Source: an uncultured virus (IMG/VR IMGVR_UViG_3300032272_000004) (lineage: Duplodnaviria; Heunggongvirae; Uroviricota; Caudoviricetes). Taken from it: a DNA stretch of 64,000 nt. The translations under genes were made by a program, and so were the position numbers. Below are positions 166-63,355 of this stretch, piece after piece. Each line of letters opens with the position of its first letter. The stretch's first letter is position 1. The stretch is from the IMG/VR virus record IMGVR_UViG_3300032272_000004; one strand, given 5' to 3'. Below the pieces are notes generated by a model, which had not been told where the DNA came from, did no database searches, and saw only the letters and a program-made list of their open reading frames with translations.

Positions 166-596
166 CCAGTCCTTGGAGCGACGAGCAGATGTGGCAGTTT
201 CGCGTGGTCGTGGCGTGCGACTGCGCCGAGCGAGCCCTACGAGCACGGAATATTCGCGACGAGGCGCTCTGGCGGGCGCTCGTCACGTCTCGGGCGGTTC
301 TCCGGCAGGAGGAAACGCGATTCGCGGCCTGGGAGGCGTCGGTTCAGGTGAGCGCCCATTCTCGTGACGCGAGTGGTGCTCCGGGTCGAGCCGTGTTCCA
401 TGCCAGCCAAGCGGCGGCGCTCGGCCCCGGGAATATCGCGGCGGCTGCTTCCGACGAGGCCCTGAGATGGTCCCAAGTCGCCGAGAAATCCGCCACGCCA
501 GACATCAGCTACGTGCAGTCCGTCTACTGGATGAAGCTCCGTCAGTGTTCACCCAAACAATTCGCGCGCAGCGTGGCCTACAAGGGGCTACCCTAG
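141..596 (+). CDS. Hypothetical phage protein, Imm5-like (A-C-D-C-A-E-R-A-L helix)
   Basis: VVACDCAERAL followed by Ala-rich helices resembles the xxADCAER motif of Imm5-like proteins. Confidence 0.5.
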   Translation: MPEPWTVVTSPWSDEQMWQFRVVVACDCAERALRARNIRDEALWRALVTSRAVLRQEETRFAAWEASVQVSAHSRDASGAPGRAVFHASQAAALGPGNIAAAASDEALRWSQVAEKSATPDISYVQSVYWMKLRQCSPKQFARSVAYKGLP

Positions 597-5347: not shown

Positions 5348-7929
5348 CAGGTGGGCAGTTCGGAGAGATCCCCATGGGCCACCCACTTGAGAGCGCCGGC
5401 CGCCAATCCGTTGACCCGCACCCGAAGTGTGTTGCCGTTGGCATCGATCGTGATGTCTGCCGAGGTGAGTCCGACGATCGTCGCAGTGAGTGTCGTCAGC
5501 GTGACACTTCCGACCAGGTTAGCTGTAGCGGCACCATCAGTACGGATCGATCCCTCGGCCCGCACGTGCAACACGGCACCCGCAGAGTTCGTGGCGACGA
5601 CGCGGATATCGAACGCCCACACCCCGGCAATGGCAGGACGCATGGTCGCGACTTCAGCGGTACCGTCGAGAAAGAGCTCGACCAAACCGGCGGCGGCAGG
5701 AGTCGTTCCAAACCACTGCAAATCGAAGCGCTTCTGATCAACCGAGCTGAGTTGCCCCGTGCTGTGACACACCTCGCCGAAGTTGTCCGCGCGAGCGTTG
5801 ATTCCGGTGGCGACCTGCGCGTCCTTGCTCACGGTGCACGTATCGCCCCACGCCATATTGCTGGTGCCACCCGAGGTGGTGCAGCTGCCAAAGCGATTCA
5901 GGAGGGCGAGGTCGGCGTCGACCCGAATCAGCGCTTCGGTATCCATGTTGGTGATACTGAGCAACGGATCGAAGAAGTTGACCGTACCCTGCTGCACCGT
6001 CAGAGCCTGCTCCACTGTGCCGGTACCGGACACGCTGCCCGTGGCGGTACCCCCGGTGGCCATCAGGCGATTCGCGATCAGAGTGCCACTGGCACCTGCC
6101 GCGAGGGCAATACAAGACGCCGCGGACCCACCACCTGCCGCAAAAGCCGAATAGAAGGCTTCGATCTGCGAGGTCCCGCCAATATCAACCGATCCAGCGA
6201 TGTCCGAGCGGTTGATGGAAACGAAGCTCGCGTCGACCCGGATCGCAAAAAATGTGGCGGTCGAGGCGCGGATCTCGCACTCCTCGAAAGTGGCTCCATG
6301 AGTAGGACCACCGGTCATGTCCAGTCCGTGACTGGTTTCGGAATTCAGACTGCACCGGAAGAAAGACAGGTTGGACGAGGCGCCCGTGTTAGCACTCGCA
6401 AACGCAGTCCCGCCCGTGTTGTCGAAAATGCAATTGTGGAAGATCAGCGAGTAGCTGGTCGTGCCGGTCATGGTGCCGGCAGGTGTGGCTCCTCCCACCG
6501 AAAACGTGATGCCATCGAAGAAGCAGGCATCGCCATCCGCGAAGGCTGCACCTGTCGTAAAGGTGCCCACCACGCGCACCGGCGTGGCTGGGGTTTGCTC
6601 CTCGACCACGAGCGCGGAGACGAAGACTCCAGGGACTGCTGTAATATTTTCGGTGTAGCTGCCCGGGTACACCAGGATCTGCCGAGGGTCGAAGGTCGTA
6701 GCTCCGTTGCCTTGCGCGTCGTCGATCGCCGACTGGATGGTCGTATGGGTGACCCCGGGCTGAAACTGCTGACCCACGACGTACTGGAAGGATGCAGACT
6801 TGCCCAATGTCTCGACGGTCGCCATCGCCGGATCAACGATAGGCACGCGTTTCGGCACAGAGACATTCCCGAGCTCGAGCGTACCACTGCCAGCGATTGC
6901 GACCGTGCCGGGGGTCACTCCTTCAATGGCGAGATCCTCGACAGTGCAGGTGCCAGAGAAGGCGGGAATCGACATCGCCGAGGCGCCTGACGGCATCGTG
7001 ATGCGACATCCCTGGGTCAGCGAAGCGGTGCCACCGCTGACGGTGATGGTCACCTGGCCCTGAAAGCGGACGGTGCGGGCAAAAAGAAAACTCGACACCG
7101 TCATCCGCACACTGGTCGCATCGCCGGCGACCGAACTGCGCTTCAGGAGCAGCGCGAGCCCAGCAGAGGCCATGGTGATTCCGACCGCGCCACTGCCAGG
7201 GGTCAGTTCGCAATCAGACAGCAGCCATTGCCCCCCACCAGTCGAAGTGAGTTCGAGCGCAGGAAATCCGTCGAGGTTCGTGAAAACGCACCGTGTCATG
7301 CGCACCGTGGCGGAAGCGCTGCCCGTATTGGTGACAGCCGCCGCACCGCCAGCGACTGGCCCTTGAAACCAAATGCCGTGACAAACCACCAGGGCGCCAT
7401 CCGCGACCACATGATTGCCGACCACGATCACGTCCGGGTCGCCAGAGAGCGAGCTCAGGAGGATCCCATCCGGGATGACCAGGTCTTCGGTGTAGGTGTC
7501 ACCGTAGACCACGACATTACGGGGATCCAGAGCGGTAGCGCCGTCCGTGACGGCGTCGTCCATGGCAGCCTGAATACTGGTGTGCGTGATACCGGTGCGC
7601 CCCAACGGGCCAACGAGGTATTGGAGAGTGCCAGCTCCGCCACCGCCACCACCACCCACGGCCAAGATCTGAAACCGGCCCGGGTCGGCAAGAGCCACCG
7701 CAGTAGGCCGAATCCAATTCACGCCGTCGTCGACATCCGTCGATGCGGCACGCCAGACGTAGATGGCAGGCTCGGTCGCTGTGACCGGCGACACCTTCAC
7801 CACAACAGCGGCGCCGTCGAGCAGCGACGCAGGCTGCGGCCAGCTGCGTAGGTTTGCGGCCCCTCCAGTACCTACAGTGTCGACTGCGCCGACCAGCGCC
7901 AGATTGTGTTGTGTGGAATCGCCTGCCAT
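5347..7929 (-). CDS. Spike/receptor-binding-like protein with two beta-helix (pectin-lyase-like) modules
   Basis: Two copies of the capping motif (THTSIQAAMDD..VYGDTYTEDL / THTTIQSAIDD..VYPGSYTENI), each followed by G/T/S-rich strand repeats; N-terminus shared with 7944-9407. Confidence 0.7.
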   Translation of the reverse strand: MAGDSTQHNLALVGAVDTVGTGGAANLRSWPQPASLLDGAAVVVKVSPVTATEPAIYVWRAASTDVDDGVNWIRPTAVALADPGRFQILAVGGGGGGGAGTLQYLVGPLGRTGITHTSIQAAMDDAVTDGATALDPRNVVVYGDTYTEDLVIPDGILLSSLSGDPDVIVVGNHVVADGALVVCHGIWFQGPVAGGAAAVTNTGSASATVRMTRCVFTNLDGFPALELTSTGGGQWLLSDCELTPGSGAVGITMASAGLALLLKRSSVAGDATSVRMTVSSFLFARTVRFQGQVTITVSGGTASLTQGCRITMPSGASAMSIPAFSGTCTVEDLAIEGVTPGTVAIAGSGTLELGNVSVPKRVPIVDPAMATVETLGKSASFQYVVGQQFQPGVTHTTIQSAIDDAQGNGATTFDPRQILVYPGSYTENITAVPGVFVSALVVEEQTPATPVRVVGTFTTGAAFADGDACFFDGITFSVGGATPAGTMTGTTSYSLIFHNCIFDNTGGTAFASANTGASSNLSFFRCSLNSETSHGLDMTGGPTHGATFEECEIRASTATFFAIRVDASFVSINRSDIAGSVDIGGTSQIEAFYSAFAAGGGSAASCIALAAGASGTLIANRLMATGGTATGSVSGTGTVEQALTVQQGTVNFFDPLLSITNMDTEALIRVDADLALLNRFGSCTTSGGTSNMAWGDTCTVSKDAQVATGINARADNFGEVCHSTGQLSSVDQKRFDLQWFGTTPAAAGLVELFLDGTAEVATMRPAIAGVWAFDIRVVATNSAGAVLHVRAEGSIRTDGAATANLVGSVTLTTLTATIVGLTSADITIDANGNTLRVRVNGLAAGALKWVAHGDLSELPT

Positions 7930-9454: not shown

Positions 9455-10324
9455 TCACTTCCGAGTCAGCAAGGGGGCGGCCCACTTCGGAGGCTTCGGC
9501 TGGTGCCGAGGCTTCCAGAGTCCCATGAAGTTTTTGTAGGTGTCCGCCCGCTGACCTGCCCAGTCCTTGCGGGCCGCAGTCGCCCCGATGTAGCACCGGC
9601 CCCCGGTACCGTAGATCGCGTACATGCCGTAGATGCTCGATCCGCGACATTTCCCCCGGGCGTGCCTTCGAGCCCGGGCCAGCATCCGGCCCCCGATGGT
9701 GTAACACCGCGTCAAGGCCTTTCGGTCAGCTCCCAGCAGGAGCTGCGCAGCCTTTTCGTCGGTCATTCCCCCTTCCGTCTTGCCGGGAGGGGGCGCCGGA
9801 CGCCGCTGCTCAGGCGTCAGCCAGTGGCTGTACTGCTTGATGTAGGCGGGCATGATCTGCATCACGCAGGCCTCGCCCAGGCTCCCGCGGCCCATGGGCG
9901 GGGCGCCCGTCATGATGTCCTCTCGGTACCCGCTCTCCCAGATGCTCGAGCCCAGGAGCGCCATTGCGAGGCTCCGGGGCCCCTCGGGCCAGTGCACCGG
10001 CTTGCAATCCTCGACCACCCTACCGAGCTCGTCCTTACACCGGGTCAGGTAGACCGATGCGCGCACTGCAGCGTAGGCCGCTTCGCGATATCGCTCCGCC
10101 GCCTGGTCGCGGGTTTCGACCGTCACCCAAGCCTTCCGACCTGCCGACCAACGGGGCGGGGCGCAGCGGAAATCGTGCTTGTTGGCGCACTTTGGCTTCA
10201 CTTCGCAGGTGGCAGCCTTCGGATCGGTGCCGCACTCGGGGAGCGTCTCCATCGAGTAGGGCGAGCCGCCGGGCTTGGTGTGAAGGAGCAACAGGACCCA
10301 GATGAATTTGACCAAGGGTGTCAT
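9455..10324 (-). CDS. Secreted Cys-rich protein with lysozyme/transglycosylase-like motifs
   Basis: Hydrophobic N-terminus; WESGY and GEACVMQIMP echo the SLT E-S and GxMQ motifs. Confidence 0.5.
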   Translation of the reverse strand: MTPLVKFIWVLLLLHTKPGGSPYSMETLPECGTDPKAATCEVKPKCANKHDFRCAPPRWSAGRKAWVTVETRDQAAERYREAAYAAVRASVYLTRCKDELGRVVEDCKPVHWPEGPRSLAMALLGSSIWESGYREDIMTGAPPMGRGSLGEACVMQIMPAYIKQYSHWLTPEQRRPAPPPGKTEGGMTDEKAAQLLLGADRKALTRCYTIGGRMLARARRHARGKCRGSSIYGMYAIYGTGGRCYIGATAARKDWAGQRADTYKNFMGLWKPRHQPKPPKWAAPLLTRK

Positions 10325-10370
10325 GGGCTCGCCACCTATCCTGCTTTGGCAGCGAATGCAAACTCCGCGA

Positions 10371-10685
10371 TCAAGCCGGCGCAGCGGCCGGAATCGGCAC
10401 GGACTCCCAAACCCGCGTTCTGGTTGCGGGATCCAGCAAGTCGAGCACCGAGGCGAGTCCAGTACGGACATAATTCTCATCGGGCATCACATCGGGCCGG
10501 CCGTTCTCTGCGAGCAGGAGCCCGATCTCTTCGTAGAGCTGCTTGTCGGAGCCAATGTACGCCAGCTGGGCCTCTCCGAGGTCTCCGGGGGACCACCAGG
10601 GGTCTACTCGGCGCTGAAACTCGGTGAGATCCAGGGTTTCGGCCAAAAACTGTCGCACGTCGTCCCGGAGGCTACTCTTCTGCAT
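10371..10685 (-). CDS. Hypothetical protein
   Basis: ORF in a co-directional gene run. Confidence 0.5.
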   Translation of the reverse strand: MQKSSLRDDVRQFLAETLDLTEFQRRVDPWWSPGDLGEAQLAYIGSDKQLYEEIGLLLAENGRPDVMPDENYVRTGLASVLDLLDPATRTRVWESVPIPAAAPA

Positions 10686-11980: not shown

Positions 11981-12009
11981 TTGACAGGTGCCGCGTCGAC
12001 ATGCACCCT
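11981..12009 (+). promoter_or_regulatory. Promoter for the tRNA-like/Pth2 unit
   Basis: TTGACA-17 nt-CACCCT; same arrangement as 63358-63386. Confidence 0.55.
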
Positions 12010-12299: not shown

Positions 12300-12377
12300 G
12301 CATCGGTAGCTCAGTTGGTAGAGCGCCCGGGAGGATCACCCGGGATGTCGCAGGTTCGAGCCCTGCCCGATGCGCCA
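12300..12377 (+). tRNA. tRNA-like gene 2, non-canonical anticodon loop (central GAT)
   Basis: GCATCGG/CCGATGC acceptor, G discriminator, CCA; TAGCTCAGTTGGTAGAGC; CCCGGG-AGGATCA-CCCGGG; GCAGG-TTCGAGC-CCTGC. Confidence 0.85.
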
Positions 12378-12378
12378 C

Positions 12379-12456
12379 GTGTGAGTAGCTCAGTTGGTAG
12401 AGCGCCTGGGGAGATCACCTGGGATGTCGCAGGTTCGAGCCCTGTCTCACACTCCA
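12379..12456 (+). tRNA. tRNA-like gene 3, non-canonical anticodon loop (central GAT)
   Basis: GTGTGAG/CTCACAC acceptor, T discriminator, CCA; D- and T-arms nearly identical to gene 2; CCTGGG-GAGATCA-CCTGGG. Confidence 0.85.
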
Positions 12457-13091: not shown

Positions 13092-13793
13092 TCACTGCAG
13101 CGCCGCCACCACGCGGGGGTCCACCCAGGGCTTGCCCTCTTTGATGTCCTGGTAGTCGTTGTCGGCGAGGATCACCCAAACGTGGGGCTCGCCGGCCACG
13201 AGTGACCCGAATGCACGATGGTTGCCGTCCCGGATGGTGACCACCATGGCCCCGAGATCCCCGTCCTTTGCCTCGACCGCAGCAGCGAGCTCGGTCTCGA
13301 AATACGACTTGGCTGCGGCCGGGGAAATGTCCTCCATCTCGGCGCGTTCTTCGATCGCTGCGCCGGGATCGACAATGAACGCGTCGAGGTCATCGTCGCC
13401 GGCGGTGTAGGCCTCGAAGCCTGTGTCGTCCGCGTACTCGACCGACTCCTTGATGTCGTCTGGGTCAATGAACGACACGGTGCCGTAGGGAGCAACAAAC
13501 CCGACGCGCTCCGTCGCGTCCTTGACCCCCGACACGACCGAGGCGAGCTTGTCCGGGTAGAAAATGTTGCCGTCGAGGTGCAGCACGTACTCCGGGTCGA
13601 CCTGCAGCATTCGCCCTTCTGCTCCGATCCAAATGACGTTTTTTCCCGCGTAGTAATCATACACTTCGTCTGAGAACTCATCGAAGATCTCCCCGCTCGC
13701 GCTCAAGGGATAGTGATCCTCGAAATCCCCCTCACCCGAGGCCGCGACCTCTTCGATCGAAGGCAGGTGGCCCGGGTTGGCTTCGTGCGTCAT
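13092..13793 (-). CDS. Acidic protein with ParB/Srx-like DGNHR motif
   Basis: VTIRDGNHRAF near the C-terminus; AAGGAG RBS. Confidence 0.55.
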   Translation of the reverse strand: MTHEANPGHLPSIEEVAASGEGDFEDHYPLSASGEIFDEFSDEVYDYYAGKNVIWIGAEGRMLQVDPEYVLHLDGNIFYPDKLASVVSGVKDATERVGFVAPYGTVSFIDPDDIKESVEYADDTGFEAYTAGDDDLDAFIVDPGAAIEERAEMEDISPAAAKSYFETELAAAVEAKDGDLGAMVVTIRDGNHRAFGSLVAGEPHVWVILADNDYQDIKEGKPWVDPRVVAALQ

Positions 13794-14455
13794 TTGAACC
13801 ACTCCTTCAGATCCTCGCGGTCCTCACCGTGCCACTCCGACAACGAACTCGGCCAGTAGTGGTGCTCGTGAGGGTCCTCCACGGTCGCCCACCCCTCGTG
13901 GGCCACGACCACGTGACCCAGAAACTCGATACCCAGACAATCGGCTATCTGGCGTGCGGCTCGGGTCATTTCCTGGTCCGCACTGCTTGGTGCCGGGCGA
14001 GCGCTCGGGTGGTTGTGACAGAGGTACACCCCAGACGCGCCCGACAGGACCGCCACCTTGAACAGCTGCCGGGCCTCGATCGCGATCGATGATGCCCCAC
14101 CGACCGCCACCTCGTGGATCGCCAGCAGGCGCCGCTCGGCATCGACGCAGAAGGCCATCTGGTGCTCCACGTCGCTGTCGGCGTGGTGGCTGGCCAGGTA
14201 GGCGACCTCGTGGGCCGACGGCAATCGAGGGCGCTCCTGCTCCCCCGTGAAGGCTCTCGGGCGCACGAGCGCGGTCCGCACGAGCAAGAGCTGGGGGACC
14301 GATTCCAAATGCGGAAAATGGCCGCGGGGGTTGGGCTTCATCGCGTCGTCCACCAGTACGATGTCAGGACCCCCGAGTTCGCTGATCGCGACGGCGTACT
14401 CCTGCATGGTCGACGCCTGCTCCACCGCCCGCTCTGCCGCTGCCTCGCTGATCAT
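13790..14455 (-). CDS. RadC-like JAB/MPN protein (copy 2)
   Basis: DVEH, LCHNHPSARPAPSSAD, FLGHVVV. Confidence 0.85.
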   Translation of the reverse strand: MISEAAAERAVEQASTMQEYAVAISELGGPDIVLVDDAMKPNPRGHFPHLESVPQLLLVRTALVRPRAFTGEQERPRLPSAHEVAYLASHHADSDVEHQMAFCVDAERRLLAIHEVAVGGASSIAIEARQLFKVAVLSGASGVYLCHNHPSARPAPSSADQEMTRAARQIADCLGIEFLGHVVVAHEGWATVEDPHEHHYWPSSLSEWHGEDREDLKEWFK

Positions 14456-21452: not shown

Positions 21453-22546
21453 CACCACAGCTCCATTTGCTTGTCGATCGGCAGACAGTGTGGGCTCATC
21501 CACAACACCTCCGCGGTCGACGACTTGTCTTGACTTCCGTAACCTTTCGAGCGCCAGGTGTGGCTCGTCCAGTTCGAGGGCATGTCGTGCTCGCCCTCCA
21601 GACCGCACAGCACGATCCTGAGCTCGGGATGGTCGCCGTTCTCACGGGCCCACTCCGCCACGTCTTCGGCGATGTCGCCATCCTCCTCGGCGTAGAGCTT
21701 CTTGCTACGCAAGTCGTGACTGTAGGGCGGGTCGAGAAAAACCCCGCAGGGCCGCATGCCGCCCACACCAGAGCCCATGCCCATCACCGCTGGCGTCACG
21801 ACGCGGCGCCAGTCGCCGCAGCAGACGCGCACGTGGCGCATTCGATCGCGCAGATTCTGAAACCACACCTCACAGGGAGGCTTCGAGAGGCCGTGGACGC
21901 CCTTGTTGTTGCCGAGCGACGGCAGTCGGGTGCGCGTGGTACGCTGATCTTGCGAGACAGGGCCCGTCGCTGACGGTGCATCAGCCTCGCCAAAGTCCCC
22001 CGCTCGTAGCGGGGGCACTCGTTTTGTATGCACCCCCCGCGGTCGACTGTTCGGACGTTTCCTCACTGTCTGAATCCCACGAGACTTGCCCAGGTCAGGG
22101 CGACGCTTCTGCCGCGATATGCCAGGGCCCTTTTCGGCCGAGCACCACTCGCCACCGATCCAGGCCGACAGCCCCCAGACCCACCAGCCGGCGCGCTTCG
22201 TGTCGTAGTAGTGAGGGTCATCTCGCACCTTGCCGCGCAACTCCGCCAGGCCCTCCACCAGCCACGCGTGGCGCGCGTGCAGGTCCATTTCGTTGACCGG
22301 CCAGTCTACGAACTTCGCAACCGCCAAGGGATCGGCGACTGTCGCTCGCCAGAAGTTTACCAAGTGGCAATCCAAGTCGTTGACCGACTCGATCTTGCCC
22401 GGGACGGGGCGACCCAACAGCACAGCTCCCGAACCAAAGAACGGCTCGATGTAGTTGGGCACGTGCCCCAACGCTCGCCACACTGTGCCCGAGACGCGAC
22501 GCTTGCCTCCGTACCAGGGATACGGCGACTGCAACGGGTCCTTCAC
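21452..22546 (-). CDS. DNA adenine methyltransferase (Dam/D12-like, alpha class)
   Basis: YPWYGGK, EPFFGSGAV, NDLD, FLDPPY. Confidence 0.9.
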   Translation of the reverse strand: MKDPLQSPYPWYGGKRRVSGTVWRALGHVPNYIEPFFGSGAVLLGRPVPGKIESVNDLDCHLVNFWRATVADPLAVAKFVDWPVNEMDLHARHAWLVEGLAELRGKVRDDPHYYDTKRAGWWVWGLSAWIGGEWCSAEKGPGISRQKRRPDLGKSRGIQTVRKRPNSRPRGVHTKRVPPLRAGDFGEADAPSATGPVSQDQRTTRTRLPSLGNNKGVHGLSKPPCEVWFQNLRDRMRHVRVCCGDWRRVVTPAVMGMGSGVGGMRPCGVFLDPPYSHDLRSKKLYAEEDGDIAEDVAEWARENGDHPELRIVLCGLEGEHDMPSNWTSHTWRSKGYGSQDKSSTAEVLWMSPHCLPIDKQMELW

Positions 22547-38380: not shown

Positions 38381-38431
38381 AGCCATTCCTTTACCACAAC
38401 TACCTTGCCGCGCGCCTCCAACGCCCACGAG

Positions 38432-38501
38432 CGGGCTGGGTAGGAATCGAACCCACGCTGGCGGGTTTGGGGCCCGCCTGTCGACCATCGAACACCAACC
38501 C
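38432..38501 (-). tRNA. tRNA-Trp(CCA)-like, C at position 33, no encoded CCA
   Basis: GGGTTGG/CCAGCCC acceptor, G discriminator; GCGGG-CCCCAAA-CCCGC; GTGGG-TTCGATT-CCTAC. Confidence 0.75.
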
Positions 38502-38518
38502 AAAACAACTCCTCACCG

Positions 38519-38601
38519 CCTCCACACACTCCCAACCCTACTCATCGCCACCTCCACTCCTCCCCACACTTCGGCAAAGCGGCAAGCCTCCAGCACTCCC
38601 A
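38519..38601 (-). repeat. GGAG-repeat array, distal block (3 units)
   Basis: Plus-strand CCTCC-N4/5-CTCCC at 38519, 38551, 38587. Confidence 0.8.
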
Positions 38602-38778
38602 TCAACTCGAACGATCCCAGTACTTCTGAAACGGTAGCTTCCCCGCGAGACCCATCCCAAGCAGAGTACCCACCCCGGCCAGCGTCAGGGCGACAGGAAG
38701 CCCCACCGTACACATCACTGCGCCAACCACCCAGGTCTCGGTGGTCAAGCGCTCACTCTGTCGACTCGGATAGCTCAC
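38602..38778 (-). CDS. 58-aa membrane peptide embedded between the repeat blocks
   Basis: AAGGA then GTG; hydrophobic WVVGAVMCTVGLPVALTLAGVGTLLGMGLAG; repeat motif absent inside this ORF. Confidence 0.5.
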   Translation of the reverse strand: MSYPSRQSERLTTETWVVGAVMCTVGLPVALTLAGVGTLLGMGLAGKLPFQKYWDRSS

Positions 38779-38808
38779 GATTTCTTGTCCTTCACAGGTC
38801 GAGCGTTC

Positions 38809-39211
38809 CCTCCGCTCCCACTTTTCAAGACCTTGTCCTCCGCCGCTCCCAGGATCGTTCCGTCTCCTCCGGTCCCACTGCTTTCCATTCCCCTCCTTCG
38901 GAACGCGCCTCCACCCCCAACTCGAACCTCCACGACCTCCAGCGCTCCCACGTCGTCGAGACACTCGGCCTCCACTCCCCGACTTGAACCTCCACGCCTC
39001 CAGCTCCCACAGCCGAAATGAGGTGATAGGATTTCCTCCACTCCCAGCGTCACGTCCAATCCGTCATTGCCTCCACATCGGTCTCATGGCCCTCCCTGTT
39101 CCCACACATCCGCTTGTCGGGACCTCCATCAAAGCTGACCCTCCGTCTCCCACCATGCGGGTCTACGCCCTCCCACTCCCAAACAATCTAGCCGAGTTCC
39201 TCCCACTCCCT
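38809..39211 (-). repeat. GGAG-repeat array, proximal block (~12 bipartite units plus 5 lone GGAGG)
   Basis: Plus-strand CCTCC-N1-5-(C)TCCC(A) at 38809, 38837, 38866, 38908, 38936, 38969, 38997, 39035, 39091, 39140, 39169, 39199, with mostly unique intervening sequence. Confidence 0.85.
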
Positions 39212-40802
39212 ACTTCTTCTTCGGCCGCTTCCCCACCGGCTTCTTCTTCCGCGGCGAGCTCTTCGGAGCCGTGACTCCCTGCAGCTGATTCTCGCACGCC
39301 GCCACGTCCAGGTGCACGGTGTGTTTGCACTCGACGCAGACCAGCTTCCGACGACGGAGCTGGATGTTGTCTTCGGTGACGTGCCCACACTTGGGGCACG
39401 TCTGGGAGATATAGGCCGGGTCGCGCTGCTCGAAGGCGATGCCGTAAGACTCGAGCGCCGACTGGATGTCCTGCTGCAGCCGGTAGTAGGGCCAGGTCTG
39501 GATCTCCTGCCAGGCGTACTCGCCCCCCTGGAGCTTCTCCGGGAGCCCGTCCCGGATGCCAGTGAAGTCTTCGAGCAGGACGACGCCCACCCCGCGGTCG
39601 TCGCACCACTTGGCGAAGCGAGCGGCGATCGTCTTGCAGCGGGTGTCCCGCCAGCGGTCGCTGGCACCGGCCAGGTGATCGATGGGCTTGAGGGTGCGCG
39701 TGCGGCCGTGCCCGACGCGACCCGAGGCCTTGACCTGGTACTGAAACTGGCGCCGCCGGGCCTGCGTGCCCCGCAGGTGGGCGACGATGTCGTCCCCGTC
39801 GTAGAGGAGCTGCTCTCCGGTGTCGGTCACCGCGGCCAGGAAACAGGTGATGCCCCGGTTGATGGCGGCCCGCTTGGTCTCGACGGTCTTGGGGACCTGC
39901 TTGGTGTAGGCCAGGCGCACAAACCACTTGCGTTTCCGCAGACGGTCCTGCGTGAGAGCCGCTTCACCGATCTTGACCACCCCGTCGGCCAAGTCGCCCA
40001 GGAGCTGCCGCTGGTAGCCGTCCCGGGGCTCGATGGGCAGCGTGAACTCGCCGCCCTTGTGGCGACCGGGGCTCAGATTGAAGGTCATCAGAAACCGCCG
40101 GCCGTCACGCACGAAGCGCATGTCGGAGGCGCGGATCGGGATGGGCAACGTGCCGCGGTAGTGAGGGGGCGCTTTCTCGTGCTGCACCAGCACCTTGAAG
40201 CGGTCGGTGCGCCAGCGCTGCATGACCTTGCGGTTGAGGGCACTGGCGATGCCCGAGGACACGTCCGGGGCAATCTGCCGCACCAGCGAAAACAGGTCGA
40301 GCTGCCCCTTCCGGAGACACTTGTCGGTGAGCACCTGGGCGACCGCCGGCGTCACCAGCGGAGCCACCTCGTCGATCGCGTCGCGCAGCTCCTGCTCGGT
40401 CGCCTGCCACTCCTTGGCCTTGGGGGCCCGTTGCTCGTGCACGAGGTACCGCTGCACGATGCGCGCATCCACCCGCCAGTGCACCCGCACCGCAATGTTG
40501 GCCGCCAGGGCCAAGCTTCGGCGCACCTCCAGCAGCCGTTTGCGGAGCGCGTGGCTCTCGTTGTCGGCTAGCAGGCTCGTGTCGACGGCAATTTTGCCGG
40601 TGGCTCGGACGATGCTGAGGGGCTCGAGAGCACGACTCTCGGTCGTGGGAGTTGCCGCGCGCAAATGGGAATTGCGTCGCTGGCTATTGGCGAGCGTCCC
40701 CGAACTGACTTCCCCGCTCGTAGCGGCATGTCCGGAAACTTGTTCGCCTTCGGGACTTGGAGTAGCCCCTGAAACCGAGAGTCGTGCACTAGAACCACTC
40801 AT
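39210..40802 (-). CDS. Cas12f/TnpB-family protein, RuvC-I Asp replaced by Asn (probably nuclease-dead)
   Basis: KWFVRLAY, AAINRGI (normally GxDxG), GHGRTRTLKP, LLEDFTGI, WPYYRLQ, DPAYISQTCPKCG..CVEC..HLDVAACEN; ATG overlaps the TGA of the upstream ATPase. Confidence 0.85.
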   Translation of the reverse strand: MSGSSARLSVSGATPSPEGEQVSGHAATSGEVSSGTLANSQRRNSHLRAATPTTESRALEPLSIVRATGKIAVDTSLLADNESHALRKRLLEVRRSLALAANIAVRVHWRVDARIVQRYLVHEQRAPKAKEWQATEQELRDAIDEVAPLVTPAVAQVLTDKCLRKGQLDLFSLVRQIAPDVSSGIASALNRKVMQRWRTDRFKVLVQHEKAPPHYRGTLPIPIRASDMRFVRDGRRFLMTFNLSPGRHKGGEFTLPIEPRDGYQRQLLGDLADGVVKIGEAALTQDRLRKRKWFVRLAYTKQVPKTVETKRAAINRGITCFLAAVTDTGEQLLYDGDDIVAHLRGTQARRRQFQYQVKASGRVGHGRTRTLKPIDHLAGASDRWRDTRCKTIAARFAKWCDDRGVGVVLLEDFTGIRDGLPEKLQGGEYAWQEIQTWPYYRLQQDIQSALESYGIAFEQRDPAYISQTCPKCGHVTEDNIQLRRRKLVCVECKHTVHLDVAACENQLQGVTAPKSSPRKKKPVGKRPKKK

Positions 40803-41788
40803 GCTGTTTTTTCCTCGTCGTCGCACCCGTAGACGTCTTCGTTGGTGATGACGTCGCCATTGGCAAGCACCACGCGCTTGGCCAACCTCAACGCCCATTG
40901 CTCGATCTCTGCGTGACTCGATCCTTCCAATTTCGCAGACAGCTTCTCCGCCAGCTCGACTGGCAGTTTTCCGTCGCGCACATAGCCGATGGACGCGGCC
41001 CATATCACCCGGTGCCGCGTCCAGACCCGCTCCGCCACCTCCCAAGCCTCGACGCCAGCGGGCAGCGTGTAGGTGATGACTTGGTCGAATCGACGCCGCA
41101 ACGCATGATCCAGCAGCTCGGGTAGGTTGGTGGCGCCGATCAGAATGTTGTCCGACGGGTCGTCCTCCAAAAACATCAGAATCGAGTTCAAGACTCGGCG
41201 CATCTCGGGGAGATCAGTCTTCGAGGCGCGGCTGGCACCGAGGGAGTCGAACTCGTCGAAGAGATAGATGTTTCCAGGATTATCACGAATGTGATCGAAC
41301 ACCATTCGCACGTTGGCGCCCGTCTCGCCCAGATGGCTCTTGATGAGCCCGTCGACCTTGACCCGGTAGCAAGTGCGACCGAGCTCGGTAGCCAGAAGAG
41401 CGGCGGACGCAGTCTTGCCAGTCCCCGGGGGCCCCACGAACAGAAGCTTTCGAGCGGGGCTCAGGTTGTGGGCCGCTAGCCGCTCGGCGGCGCGTTGCTC
41501 GGCCAGGATGTCCTGAATCGCCGTGCGCAGATCCGCGCTCAACACCAGATCATCCATCTTGACCGTGGAACTCACGATGTCGAACAGTTTCCCATCCGAC
41601 AAACTCCGGAGCGGCTGCAATCGACGCACGCCATACGACTGCTGCGTCGCTCCCAGCAATCGCTGTTTCGTCTTATACCGGCCCTGCGCCTCGGCGTGAG
41701 CCGCCATTTGGCGCACTGTGTTCTGAAACCTCTCCTCGTCGCCATCGGTGTGCGATCGGATCAAGGCAAACACCTGGTCCTGCTTCAC
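40799..41788 (-). CDS. AAA+ ATPase, IetA-like
   Basis: ALIRSHTDGDEERF..QMAAH N-terminus, GPPGTGKT, SHLGETG, LFDEFD, GATN..LLDHALRRRFD. Confidence 0.85.
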   Translation of the reverse strand: MKQDQVFALIRSHTDGDEERFQNTVRQMAAHAEAQGRYKTKQRLLGATQQSYGVRRLQPLRSLSDGKLFDIVSSTVKMDDLVLSADLRTAIQDILAEQRAAERLAAHNLSPARKLLFVGPPGTGKTASAALLATELGRTCYRVKVDGLIKSHLGETGANVRMVFDHIRDNPGNIYLFDEFDSLGASRASKTDLPEMRRVLNSILMFLEDDPSDNILIGATNLPELLDHALRRRFDQVITYTLPAGVEAWEVAERVWTRHRVIWAASIGYVRDGKLPVELAEKLSAKLEGSSHAEIEQWALRLAKRVVLANGDVITNEDVYGCDDEEKTA

Positions 41789-42231
41789 AGGTACCTCCCG
41801 TCAGTTTCCTTGCGCCATTGCTCGAAACAGGAGTCAGCGGGCACCGGCTCGAACTCGCCCTCCATGTCGCCGATCAACATGAAGCCGTCCTGGCTCGAGG
41901 ATGGCGTGCCCGCGATGTAGACCGTCGGCCCGTACTCGCCACCCCCCGCCGTGTAGCGGCGCAGAGCCCAGCGGTCTGCCGATTCCTTCGTCACCTCCAC
42001 CCGGTAACAGCTTCGACGAGCCACAAGATCGATGTCGGTGCGACATTCGCCCAGCTGCTCGAGCACGAAATCCTTCTGGAAGTCGTCCTCCCCAAACCAG
42101 GGGAGGGGAAGGTCGGTAGGGACCCGCTTGCCGGCCCCCGAGACCCGCCAGGGCTTACCGGGCGTCGGACACGCAGAAACATAGCGCGCTACCACTACCT
42201 TCTCTTGTCGCTGCCAAATCTCGATTGCCAT
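41785..42231 (-). CDS. Hypothetical protein
   Basis: First ORF after the promoter at 42251-42279. Confidence 0.55.
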   Translation of the reverse strand: MAIEIWQRQEKVVVARYVSACPTPGKPWRVSGAGKRVPTDLPLPWFGEDDFQKDFVLEQLGECRTDIDLVARRSCYRVEVTKESADRWALRRYTAGGGEYGPTVYIAGTPSSSQDGFMLIGDMEGEFEPVPADSCFEQWRKETDGRYL

Positions 42232-42250
42232 GGTGTGCCTCTGAGCCGAC

Positions 42251-42279
42251 ACAATGGCCCCCGGGTGTCGCGCTGTCAA
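42251..42279 (-). promoter_or_regulatory. Promoter for the ATPase/dCas12f-like/array unit
   Basis: TTGACA-17 nt-CATTGT. Confidence 0.65.
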
Positions 42280-42326
42280 CACCCAGGGGTCGCTTTTCTC
42301 AATCCGACGGAGTGTGTGTCAGGGTG

Positions 42327-43577
42327 TCAGGCGCTGGCCGGAATGGCGGGTTCGGAAGACTTCGGGCCCGGGAACGGCGAAACAACATGATGATCCAAAA
42401 CATCCAGCTGCTTCACCTCCGCCTTCGGAGCGTCCGCGTAAACCTGCCCCAGCGGCGTGGGCTCCGTGTACATGTGATTCGATCCGAGCGACTTGGCCAC
42501 AGCCGTTGCCTCGACCGCCGACAGCGGCCCGACCTCCACCCGATGCTTCATGCGGCCCGCTCCGAGGATCGCGGGATCCACGTCGATCGCCTTCAGGTTG
42601 CTCGTCACCATGAACTTGACGTTGAGCATGTCACCGAGAATGCCGTCCGTGAGGTTGAGAAGCTGCGCGACGGGAGACGCGTCGCGCCCACTGCTCCGTT
42701 TCCGCACGAACTCGTCGCCGTCCTCCAGCAGGACCAGCAAGGGCTTCCGGTCCTTCGCGTCACGGTTCAGCAGGAGCTGCAGCATCGCCGGGCCGTCGAT
42801 GTCCGAGACATTGCGACCCGACAGAAGCGCCACCTCCACGTTTTTGCATTCGGAAAGCACAGCCCGCAGGAAAAAGGTCTTGCCCGTGCGAGGCTGTCCC
42901 CGCAGCAGCGTCAAACCCGGATCGGAACTGTCTGCCCACGAGCGCACCGCGGACAGTTGGTCACGAATCGGCTCGCTGTAGTGCCGCGCCTCGTAGGGGG
43001 CGTAACGCGAGAGCCGATGAGGCTTGAGCCTCAAGTTGCCGTTGTGATCCCGCTCCAGCAGATTCACCTGGGGTCGCGGGTCCTCCACGACCTCGGGCAG
43101 CCCATGAGGCCAGACGCTCTTCAGCAAGGCCTCCACGTACTCGGCAACATTCTGATCGCCCTCCAGCGCGTGGAGTGCGTCGGGAGCCGCAGTCCAGTAC
43201 CCCACCACGCCGCGGTCGACCTCGACCACGACCGTCACGCGACCCAACGCGATCGACCAGTACTCGTTCCCATGCGGAACAAACTCTGCCTGCACACGAT
43301 ACTCTTCGGGCACCGAATCGTCCCACCATGTATCAGGGACCTCGAACTTCCGGCCGCGAGACATGACATGATCGCCATCGCAGGTGTTATTCACCACGAC
43401 GCCGTCAATCTGAGGGCGGAGACGAAAGTACCTGCTGTAGCAGTCGAACCGAAGGCCACGGTGCCACGCGTAAACGCGCAGCTGATCCTCCAGATCGTAG
43501 TTGTTGCCAGCCGAGACCAACGACTCCGGCGAGAAGTACCGCTCGAGGTACTCCGTGTAGGTTTGGGCTTTTTTCAT
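42327..43577 (-). CDS. AAA+ ATPase (BCS1/DUF5925-associated type)
   Basis: GQPRTGKT, LLEDGD, LLNLTDGILG, TSN, DPAILGAGR. Confidence 0.8.
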   Translation of the reverse strand: MKKAQTYTEYLERYFSPESLVSAGNNYDLEDQLRVYAWHRGLRFDCYSRYFRLRPQIDGVVVNNTCDGDHVMSRGRKFEVPDTWWDDSVPEEYRVQAEFVPHGNEYWSIALGRVTVVVEVDRGVVGYWTAAPDALHALEGDQNVAEYVEALLKSVWPHGLPEVVEDPRPQVNLLERDHNGNLRLKPHRLSRYAPYEARHYSEPIRDQLSAVRSWADSSDPGLTLLRGQPRTGKTFFLRAVLSECKNVEVALLSGRNVSDIDGPAMLQLLLNRDAKDRKPLLVLLEDGDEFVRKRSSGRDASPVAQLLNLTDGILGDMLNVKFMVTSNLKAIDVDPAILGAGRMKHRVEVGPLSAVEATAVAKSLGSNHMYTEPTPLGQVYADAPKAEVKQLDVLDHHVVSPFPGPKSSEPAIPASA

Positions 43578-62851: not shown

Positions 62852-63355
62852 GTGCACGGGCTTGAGGACGTGCTGAGGGGTTGCGTGTTTTGCGACGCGC
62901 AGCCCGCGGTGCTGATTCCTGACGGTCTGTCCAAGATCGAACTCTGGGAACGCCTCGGCGTGCCCGAGTCCCGCGGTCCGAGCCAACTCGATCCGAAGAC
63001 CCCGGTGACGTGCAGCTCCTGCTGGGCGACGGGTCCCGTGATGTTGACCGAGTCGCATCCGGACCGCTCCGCTCTGGAAATTTGGAACGCTGCGGCGCGG
63101 GGCGAGTTGTGTGCTTCAGTGCCCCGAGGCGCCACGCGGGCGTGTCCCTTTTGCAAGACCAGCTCCAGCCTCGTGATGATGACGCATCATCGCCTCTCGG
63201 GCACGCCAATGCACGTCGTGCAATGCGGCTGTTGCGGCGCCCAGGGTCCGCAGATGCTGACCGAGCAAGGTGCGAAAAACTTCTGGAACCGCGGCGCTCG
63301 CTTGCCTGTGGAACTCGAGGAGGATCCACCGTTTGGGTGTGGGATGGGCGGGTAG
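62852..63355 (+). CDS. Lar (restriction-alleviation)-like double Zn-ribbon protein
   Basis: Two units of C.FC..V.C..C.A.GP..A...WN. Confidence 0.7.
   Translation: MHGLEDVLRGCVFCDAQPAVLIPDGLSKIELWERLGVPESRGPSQLDPKTPVTCSSCWATGPVMLTESHPDRSALEIWNAAARGELCASVPRGATRACPFCKTSSSLVMMTHHRLSGTPMHVVQCGCCGAQGPQMLTEQGAKNFWNRGARLPVELEEDPPFGCGMGG

Follow-up and report, generated by a model that had tools for sequence, protein, structure and literature searches.

IMG/VR record IMGVR_UViG_3300032272_000004 is an uncultured virus of the Caudoviricetes. We analyzed 64 kb out of its 118.7-kb contig (hereafter, the window), the phage character of which is apparent from the endolysin, DnaB, DnaC-like loader, and tail lysins that it encodes. 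On the minus strand lies a gene, dcas12f, for a 530-aa protein that is, by its sequence and predicted fold, a nuclease-dead relative of Cas12f1. An array of short guide units runs from its stop codon, and a predicted trans-activating CRISPR RNA (tracrRNA) scaffold lies inside its own 5' coding region. The explanation that we favor, with moderate confidence, is that this phage-borne derivative of type V-F1 Cas12f is a multiplexed RNA-guided DNA roadblock, a natural form of CRISPR interference (CRISPRi), acting mainly on host loci. The underlying ribonucleoprotein (RNP) architecture of dead Cas12f, tracrRNA, and multiplex CRISPR RNAs (crRNAs) is very probable, and the host-repression role is somewhat likelier to be right than wrong. 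Four findings from sequence analysis and modeling carry the proposal: the Cas12f1 fold, the clade-wide loss of the RuvC-I Asp, the covarying scaffold in the 5' coding region, and a reduced array of 16 units.

39210..40802, minus strand: dcas12f gene, 530 aa; Cas12f1-like, RuvC-I Asp replaced by Asn315; residues 1-50 encoded by the predicted tracrRNA

The protein matches the domain PF07282 (E 4.5e-13) and scores 105 with NF040570, the cut-off of which is 100, a result that indicates membership of the TnpB superfamily only. Its closest solved relatives by sequence are OsCas12f, SpCas12f1, and AsCas12f1 (E 1e-24 to 1e-19). The predicted structure (predicted local distance difference test score 88, with residues 1-50 disordered) most closely resembles AsCas12f1 (8J12; Foldseek E 1e-27, template modeling scores 0.62/0.76). 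An earlier reading of this locus (the original prediction) had proposed a nuclease-dead Cas12f/TnpB-like protein and suggested a hidden Markov model and structure search; that search places Cas12f1 nearest, with TnpB further away by fold and Cas12m more distant (E 5e-12). The active site is also as originally read: the RuvC-I motif is AINRG, and E411 of RuvC-II, D499 of RuvC-III, and the four Zn ribbon cysteines (C469/472/489/492) are present. In the alignment, N315 stands at the position of the first catalytic Asp of SpCas12f1, the D228A mutant of which is nuclease-dead (PMC12255294).

Loss of this Asp is a property of the whole clade, in agreement with the predicted absence of nuclease activity. 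With a full HMMER search, 110 representatives were obtained at E < 1e-30, and residues were counted in the 89 near-full-length close relatives (33-45% identity). Asp occurs at the RuvC-I position in 0/89; the residue is N in 65, H in 13, T in 7, R in 2, C in 1, and Q in 1. In a tree of 138 proteins of at least 380 aa, the RuvC-I Asp has been lost in 124 and kept in 14, the two sets lying on opposite sides of the midpoint root; an inner clade of 91 members has modest support (0.69). Further sister groups among proteins P0099-P0148 (470-650 aa, 33 of them in the tree) have N, H, or R at RuvC-I. Run X2 contains a relative that is ~97% identical to dcas12f over 277 nt of the gene; 9/9 differences are synonymous, which suggests, from a small sample, that the dead protein is under purifying selection.

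It is conceivable that the enzyme still nicks or cuts DNA or RNA, through an Asn-Glu-Asp site or a shifted acidic residue. The equivalents of E411 and D499 are largely kept in the clade, and the TnpB family includes rearranged, probably active RuvC sites (PMC10691335). Position 315 is nevertheless filled by N, H, T, R, C, or Q, RuvC-II is non-Glu in 23/89 relatives, and Asp is lacking in 124/138 tree proteins, and we consider residual nuclease activity very unlikely. Neither a single-protein scan of IMG/VR nor the A3 scan turned up a relative, and GTDB gave 30 loci, all distant (23-35% identity) and none a clade member, so that no host is assigned. Comparison of gene surroundings was made with 13 in-clade loci, two of which end inside the gene and 11 of which carry downstream DNA.

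The disordered N terminus contains odd peptides (P-EGE...LAN) shared among relatives, and at the DNA level it appears as a conserved RNA, the elements of which are as follows (handles are the short bipartite repeats of the array).

40631..40769, minus strand: predicted tracrRNA scaffold, codons 12-57 of dcas12f; conserved RNA with covariation
40752..40769, minus strand: tracrRNA stem 1, with the short anti-repeat in its loop (pentamer CTCCA, 40758-40762)
40689..40748, minus strand: tracrRNA stem 2, GGCGA...TCGCC with a long inner stem; the most conserved part
40654..40684, minus strand: tracrRNA stem 3, a variable hairpin (single-sequence fold)
40641..40653, minus strand: long anti-repeat, pairing with the TGGGAG part of the handles (duplex predictions)

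The scaffold was aligned or seen by inspection in 11/11 sequences with 5' DNA. In a ten-sequence alignment, from which the structure itself was also derived, both sides have changed in 13/19 predicted pairs, a level reached in 0/500 shuffles, and pairing drops from 87% to 29-46% in slid controls. The CTCCA loop is predicted to pair with the (T)GGAG end of each handle, forming a pseudoknot, and a cis hairpin (40631-40647) caps the 3' half of the long anti-repeat. The published V-F layout likewise combines a long duplex with a short one of 5-7 bp (PMC11246509). The short duplex with the modal repeat end shows 5/5 pairing in 10/11 loci, with both partners changed in L036, L039, L040, and L042, and in a 10 x 10 matrix of long duplexes the locus's own scaffold is the best partner for 9/10 loci.

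A covariance model built from the dead clade alone recovers a held-out locus (L046, 63.6 bits) and a permuted one (L004, 24.4 bits), and matches 10/30 distant control loci at 27.5-29.9 bits. In the four control loci that were opened (L006, L007, L008, and L052), the match precedes a regular CRISPR array and a Cas12f gene with an intact Asp-Glu-Asp (D-E-D) triad, which identifies the scaffold as a tracrRNA of the Cas12f1 type; stem 2 is common to the dead clade and these nuclease-intact Cas12f CRISPR loci. The original prediction had looked to a TnpB-type guide at the 3' end of the gene, and what is found instead is a separate tracrRNA in the 5' coding region. The four control loci (e.g. L008:6850-9173) come from gut Firmicutes and are probably active V-F1 systems. 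In L004:5945-6110 and in proteins P0033, P0060, and P0087, the scaffold halves are swapped, a natural circular permutation that offers a lead for guide engineering. In L046:2058-2634, the scaffold joins the C-terminal third of the gene, as in an internally deleted copy that has retained its tracrRNA.

In 8/11 loci the ORF reads through the scaffold in frame without meeting a stop; in L035, L042, and L043 the scaffold lies upstream of the ORF and contains in-frame stops. A strict peptide signature of the embedded scaffold is present in 20/89 proteins, others being seen by eye in shifted frames. In the window, just two standard starts precede the folded domain: ATG 40802, which has GAGG 9 nt upstream and is coupled to the stop of the preceding ATPase gene, and a TTG within stem 3 that has no visible ribosome site; we infer that translation runs through the scaffold. 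The short anti-repeat resembles an anti-Shine-Dalgarno sequence in 7/11 loci.

The array that would supply the partners of this scaffold begins at the stop codon of dcas12f.

38790..39210, minus strand: guide array units 1-12; handles 12-15 nt, the first overlapping the dcas12f stop codon
38602..38778, minus strand: 58-aa ORF within the array; no family match
38502..38601, minus strand: guide array units 13-15 (array parse)
38431..38501, minus strand: tRNA-Trp(CCA) lying within the array; not conserved as a neighbor
38395..38427, minus strand: unit 16, handle 38415-38427 plus spacer, downstream of the tRNA-Trp

The bipartite repeat array first noticed from the stop codon onward is well above chance: the motif TGGGAN{1,6}GGAGG has 11 matches in 64 kb, all inside 38519-39181, against an expectation of 1.55 +/- 1.18, and 11 was reached in 0/100 shuffles. 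As parsed, the array consists of 16 units: a run of 12 starts at the stop codon and is followed by the 58-aa ORF (with a single hydrophobic 19-mer, Kyte-Doolittle mean 2.0), three further units, the tRNA-Trp, and one last unit. The original prediction had described this end correctly as far as the tRNA, and had missed the 16th unit beyond it. The unit period is 28-33 nt in 8/13 adjacent pairs, and spacers are 14-25 nt long in 10/13; the long ones (spacers 3, 4, and 9) harbor what are probably three half-handles. Window handles are irregular (12-16 nt), and the window has no regular array of full-length CRISPR repeats.

Each of the 16 handles retains 4-5 pairs of the short duplex and forms a long duplex at -10.4 to -16.5 kcal/mol, from which it follows that the bipartite repeat would consist of exactly the two docking segments; this lends support to the earlier notion of a multiplex guide array with a minimal repeat. 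Pairing at -10 or better is found for 17/21 GGAGG sites within the array and for 6/160 elsewhere in the window, and the latter show no clustering that would indicate remote handles. Spacers are far more variable than handles, a contrast that had been proposed as a check: their mean pairwise identity is 24%, comparable to random sequence. In the run X2 contig (depth 2.2), handles 1, 2, and 5 and spacers 1 and 4 are identical to those of the window, the stretch between spacer 2 and handle 4 differs, and spacer 5 is replaced by unrelated AT-rich sequence. This one low-depth contig suggests that spacers turn over even among minimal handles. Its loose end, at window position 39033, is an AT-rich stretch with TATAAT that resembles a foreign promoter. 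A stable array-wide RNA fold was considered and rejected (z +1.0).

Two less flattering interpretations of the array need to be weighed at this point. The first is that it is a decayed relic, the protein and scaffold serving guides elsewhere in the phage, or nothing. The handles are irregular and probably shorter than ordinary integration by Cas1-Cas2 would require, the array is interrupted by an ORF and a tRNA, one homolog locus (L038) has dispersed mini-arrays, and 54 kb of the contig lies outside the window. The retention of pairing by 16/16 handles, the concentration of well-pairing GGAGG sites within the array, and the unchanged handles 1, 2, and 5 beside differing spacers in a close relative all speak against decay, and we judge it improbable to the same high degree as residual nuclease activity. 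The second is that the array is a decoy RNA, a Shine-Dalgarno mimic or a sponge for CsrA/RsmA, unrelated to guiding. GGAGG is the Shine-Dalgarno core and contains the GGA of CsrA sites, and 21 copies fall within 0.8 kb. In L036, L039, L040, and L042, however, the element is TGCAG, GACAG, TGCGG, or GGCAG, with a scaffold loop to match, and the lack of a stable overall fold does not favor a decoy, which we find barely credible. With residual nuclease activity, these two interpretations are minor ones.

Comparison with the homolog loci shows where such handles may come from. Repeats are present in 10/11 loci with downstream DNA, as the original prediction would have it, and in 8/11 (L003, L004, L035, L036, L037, L040, L042, and L043) the array starts at the stop codon, frequently with an overlap, or close to it. 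L039 has one unit at the stop-codon position, and L038 has three mini-arrays near the gene. The latter, dispersed over a 108-kb contig with one scaffold, lie at 200-360 (+), 5750-5900 (+), and 9900-10400 (-). In six homolog loci the repeats are full-length (~35 nt) and most spacers measure 35-40 nt, and the label "non-CRISPR" that had been given to the array must be abandoned. Full repeats grade into short handles in L003 and L035, and only handles are present in L004, L038, L043, and the window, a gradation that points to one CRISPR array family at several stages of erosion. On this comparative evidence, the window array is an eroded type V-F CRISPR array. A lone handle-like unit was also seen at G001:C1:53984-54010 (+), ~47 kb from the L003 array.

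The targets of the guides are approached through the spacers. The search of spacers that had been recommended gave no convincing match in phage or plasmid collections: for the L003, window, L035, and L042 arrays, the best E value against PLSDB or INPHARED was 0.1 or worse, and of the exact spacer scans of IMG/VR, one returned the array itself alone and the other nothing. No spacers are common to any two loci beyond 10/12 bases. A comparison of 126 spacer starts with the window, two whole phage records, and 11 loci gave no convincing self-target, and the lack of such targets in the window and the two homolog phage records agrees with a system directed at the host.

Three features hint at what the targets may be. 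After 10 doubtful units had been dropped from the 126, ATG was found within the first 9 nt in 21 of the remaining 116 spacers versus 10.7 expected (p 0.002, post hoc), and CAT in 8. One L003 spacer translates as MAKGKNQHVVP, resembling the DUF2188 start MAKKGQHVVP in L311; DUF2188 is predicted to act in defense (10.1101/2022.04.27.489752). A degenerate scan for this gene-start-like spacer gave 25 loci, one of them its own array and the remainder at most 30/36 identical. A 15/16 match in L043 was rejected, as it sits inside a DUF3307 gene and not at the start of a DUF2188 gene. The third feature concerns two spacers of the window.

38981..38996, minus strand: spacer 6, 2 nt into handle 7; tRNA-Leu T-arm match, not above shuffle
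38920..38935, minus strand: spacer 8; second tRNA-Leu T-arm-like guide

Both correspond to the tRNA T-arm in the sense orientation: 100/127 examined matches lie in called tRNAs, 85 of them Leu, and there is an exact match of a T-arm-like spacer in a bacterial tRNA-Leu(TAG). The two differ from each other at the purine that varies in T-loops. On the other side, they contain the handle's own GGAGG. We think the match to the tRNA-Leu T-arm has a somewhat better than even chance of being real.

In a different interpretation, the same RNP is aimed at rival phages, plasmids, or satellites, whose genes or origins it would block, or it occludes the tRNA-Leu attachment sites through which they integrate and excise. 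The 3' halves of tRNA genes are classic attB sites, and the fit of spacers 6 and 8 to tRNA-Leu would suit such a role. There are precedents in Cas12m, which stops plasmid transcription without cutting (PMC11656645), and in Thermus phage Cas12r, the spacers of which aim at tRNA-integrating elements (10.64898/2026.04.20.719267). INPHARED, PLSDB, and IMG/VR, collections with few relatives, nevertheless contain no convincing phage or plasmid match, and old spacers behind eroded handles would suit stable targets more than fast-changing ones; we regard competition with other elements as an unlikely, though serious, alternative to host repression.

Several observations weigh against the roadblock proposal itself. 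No protospacer, PAM (protospacer adjacent motif), or host was identified in the self, PLSDB, INPHARED, and IMG/VR searches. The ATG excess is post hoc and, for the window alone, amounts to 4/18 (p 0.13), and long spacers have no coding-strand bias (19/42 sense). Spacers 6 and 8 reach 13/15 on 130 unselected tRNAs, which ~2% of shuffles equal. RuvC-II Glu is kept in 66/89 relatives and RuvC-III Asp in 85/89. The L004 scaffold ranks only 6th for its own repeats in the cognate long-duplex test, before which repeat patterns and scaffold windows were picked by eye. L044 has no array within ~420 nt of downstream DNA, and the non-coding scaffolds of 3/11 loci mean that embedding in the gene is not required.

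The transcription unit in which these elements lie is completed by two genes and a probable promoter.

42251..42279, minus strand: probable promoter of the transcription unit, TTGACA-17-CATTGT (relaxed pattern match)
41785..42231, minus strand: 148-aa hypothetical ORF; no family match, probably co-transcribed
40799..41788, minus strand: AAA ATPase (PF00004, E 1.4e-27); probably co-transcribed, not a conserved part

The order on the minus strand is the 148-aa ORF, the AAA ATPase, dcas12f through an ATGA overlap, and the array, an ORF layout that had been read correctly. The promoter proposed at 42251-42279 holds up in its perfect -35 element and 17-nt spacing and falls short in its -10, which matches 3/6 positions; a consensus scan does not call it, and the relaxed pattern gives only three sites across the window. 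An inverted repeat (42251-42291) encloses it and is possibly an operator or terminator. The ATPase is IteA-like (NF042959, E 6.5e-45, below cut-off); a second AAA ATPase lies nearby at 42327-43577, and no partner protease was seen for the first. A PF00004 protein is found in 0/10 homolog neighborhoods and a tRNA in 0/10 homolog loci, and by this comparison the ATPase and the tRNA are local passengers. The ATPase thereby loses its place as a member of the system, and the suggested role of the tRNA as an RNase P processing signal is further undermined by the unit beyond it.

The reported absence of cas1, cas2, and tnpA from the window was upheld for 95 predicted ORFs against PHROGs and 83 against Pfam. 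Y1 TnpA is absent from the window ORFs and from 2/2 homolog phage records, a search that did not extend to transposon ends, and Cas1 was not found in 2/2 of these whole records, one of which has terminal repeats (completeness estimates 64% and 41%). An Rfam scan of the window gave three tRNAs and nothing else. Two tandem tRNA-Ile(GAT) genes lie at 12300-12456, downstream of a TTGACA promoter-like site at 11981. Other likely counter-defense genes in the window encode two RadC-like JAB proteins, a Lar-like restriction-alleviation protein, and a DNA methyltransferase (1267-1767, 13793-14455, 62852-63352, and 21455-22546).

The roadblock proposal can be set out as a sequence of steps. A transcript from the promoter at 42279 would give dCas12f, a tracrRNA of ~140 nt, and 16 or more crRNAs, each, if Cas12f1 is a guide, consisting of a handle and a 14-20-nt guide sequence. 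By the same analogy, a protein dimer would hold one tracrRNA:crRNA pair, seek a 5' PAM, and open an R-loop. As with TldR and Cas12m, the complex would stay on its target and leave the DNA uncut, obstructing RNA polymerase or other machines that bind DNA. More speculatively, the targets may be host gene starts, including those of defense genes, and tRNA-Leu genes. Since the mRNA includes the scaffold, loading or processing of the latter may consume the message and so limit the level of the protein. New spacers might be acquired at full-repeat loci from host Cas1-Cas2 acting in trans, and in eroded arrays by deletion or recombination. A fuller version, in which a single transcript is effector mRNA, tracrRNA, and guide array, consumes its own message, has its handles reprogrammed by recombination, and carries guides that silence host defense-gene starts and occupy tRNA-Leu attachment sites, is attractive and we advance it only tentatively, as more doubtful than not. 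The resemblance of the short anti-repeat to an anti-Shine-Dalgarno sequence, together with the finding that the AsCas12f1 tracrRNA can be engineered to make mRNAs serve as guides (PMC11246509), raises the possibility that some ordinary transcripts are loaded as guides.

Among known systems, the guide architecture would be that of V-F1 Cas12f1 and the output that of TldR or Cas12m. With V-F1 Cas12f1 (AsCas12f1 8J12, SpCas12f1 9I8Y, and OsCas12f 9NZQ) the locus shares the fold, the Zn ribbon, the 400-550-aa size range, tracrRNA stem 1, the pseudoknot, long and short repeat:anti-repeat duplexes, and a spacer 3' of the repeat. It differs in having no D-E-D triad and no cas1 found, in being ~100 aa longer and phage-borne, and in its tracrRNA within the coding sequence, array from the stop codon, and, in the window, 12-16-nt repeats. 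Inactivated Cas12f branches and array minimization were described by Altae-Tran et al. (PMC10691335). Another close system is the rpoE-less, array-associated dCas12f of Hoffmann et al., which also has a predicted dead Cas12f next to a CRISPR array, together with a covarying RNA, and was proposed to be a host-gene repressor (PMC13472631, Extended Data Fig. 1a,b). As described there, that cluster has putative gRNAs upstream of the arrays, in intergenic DNA, a Chitinophagaceae example, and C-terminal truncations, whereas the protein described here retains an intact RuvC-III and Zn ribbon, its loci look like those of phages, and its scaffold falls in coding sequence; the two are set apart by description only. 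dCas12f-sigmaE (PMC13472631; 9N9C) has in common a dead Cas12f, short guides (14-16 nt there), and arrays reduced toward the tracrRNA-pairing part (PMC10691335). Its operon with rpoE and helix-turn-helix (HTH) genes has no counterpart here, rpoE being absent at the window and adjacent to 10 homolog genes; the tracrRNA is separate rather than fused into single guides, and the C-terminal end is untruncated. One HTH/sigma-region-4 protein does occur 3 kb from L038.

TldR is likewise a nuclease-dead RNA-guided DNA binder, with a prophage-borne clade that represses a host gene (10.1101/2023.11.30.569447). It is, as described there, derived from TnpB and uses one scaffold-guide RNA, unlike the Cas12f1 protein, tracrRNA, and 16 or more guides proposed here. 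Relative to both TldR and the TnpB of IS200-IS605 elements, the scaffold is at the 5' end of the gene and the guides are in an array. Cas12m (V-M) is comparable in its array-guided, non-cutting binding and its occurrence on mobile elements, including one phage example (10.64898/2026.09.14.751636); its fold is more distant, and the phage example comes with no reported tracrRNA, unlike the tracrRNA-based arrangement here. The window locus is thus not a full member of V-F1, as judged by triad and regular array, of dCas12f-sigmaE, or of TldR. A 2022 paper by Al-Shayeb et al. on virus-encoded CRISPR systems reportedly mentions inactivated phage effectors. A phage dead Cas12f with a coding-embedded tracrRNA was not found in the literature, of which subscription papers were little covered and supplements could contain the clade.

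What emerges is a large lineage, apparently not described before, of Cas12f1 proteins that are naturally dead and occur in phage-like contigs, comprising ~90 clusters at 50% identity, with a guide scaffold that covariation defines well enough for immediate building and testing. The published tracrRNA search of PMC10090079 was restricted to non-coding DNA separating gene and array; a tracrRNA inside the coding sequence of its effector means that intergenic searches of this kind would miss such scaffolds. The embedding also suggests a simple form of autoregulation. The natural handles of 12-16 nt, units of 28-33 nt, and circularly permuted scaffolds illustrate to what small size a multiplex Cas12f guide system may be reduced, which bears on the design of compact CRISPRi tools. 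And if it is true that the guides reach host defense genes or tRNA att sites, then phages of this lineage would possess a programmable form of counter-defense.

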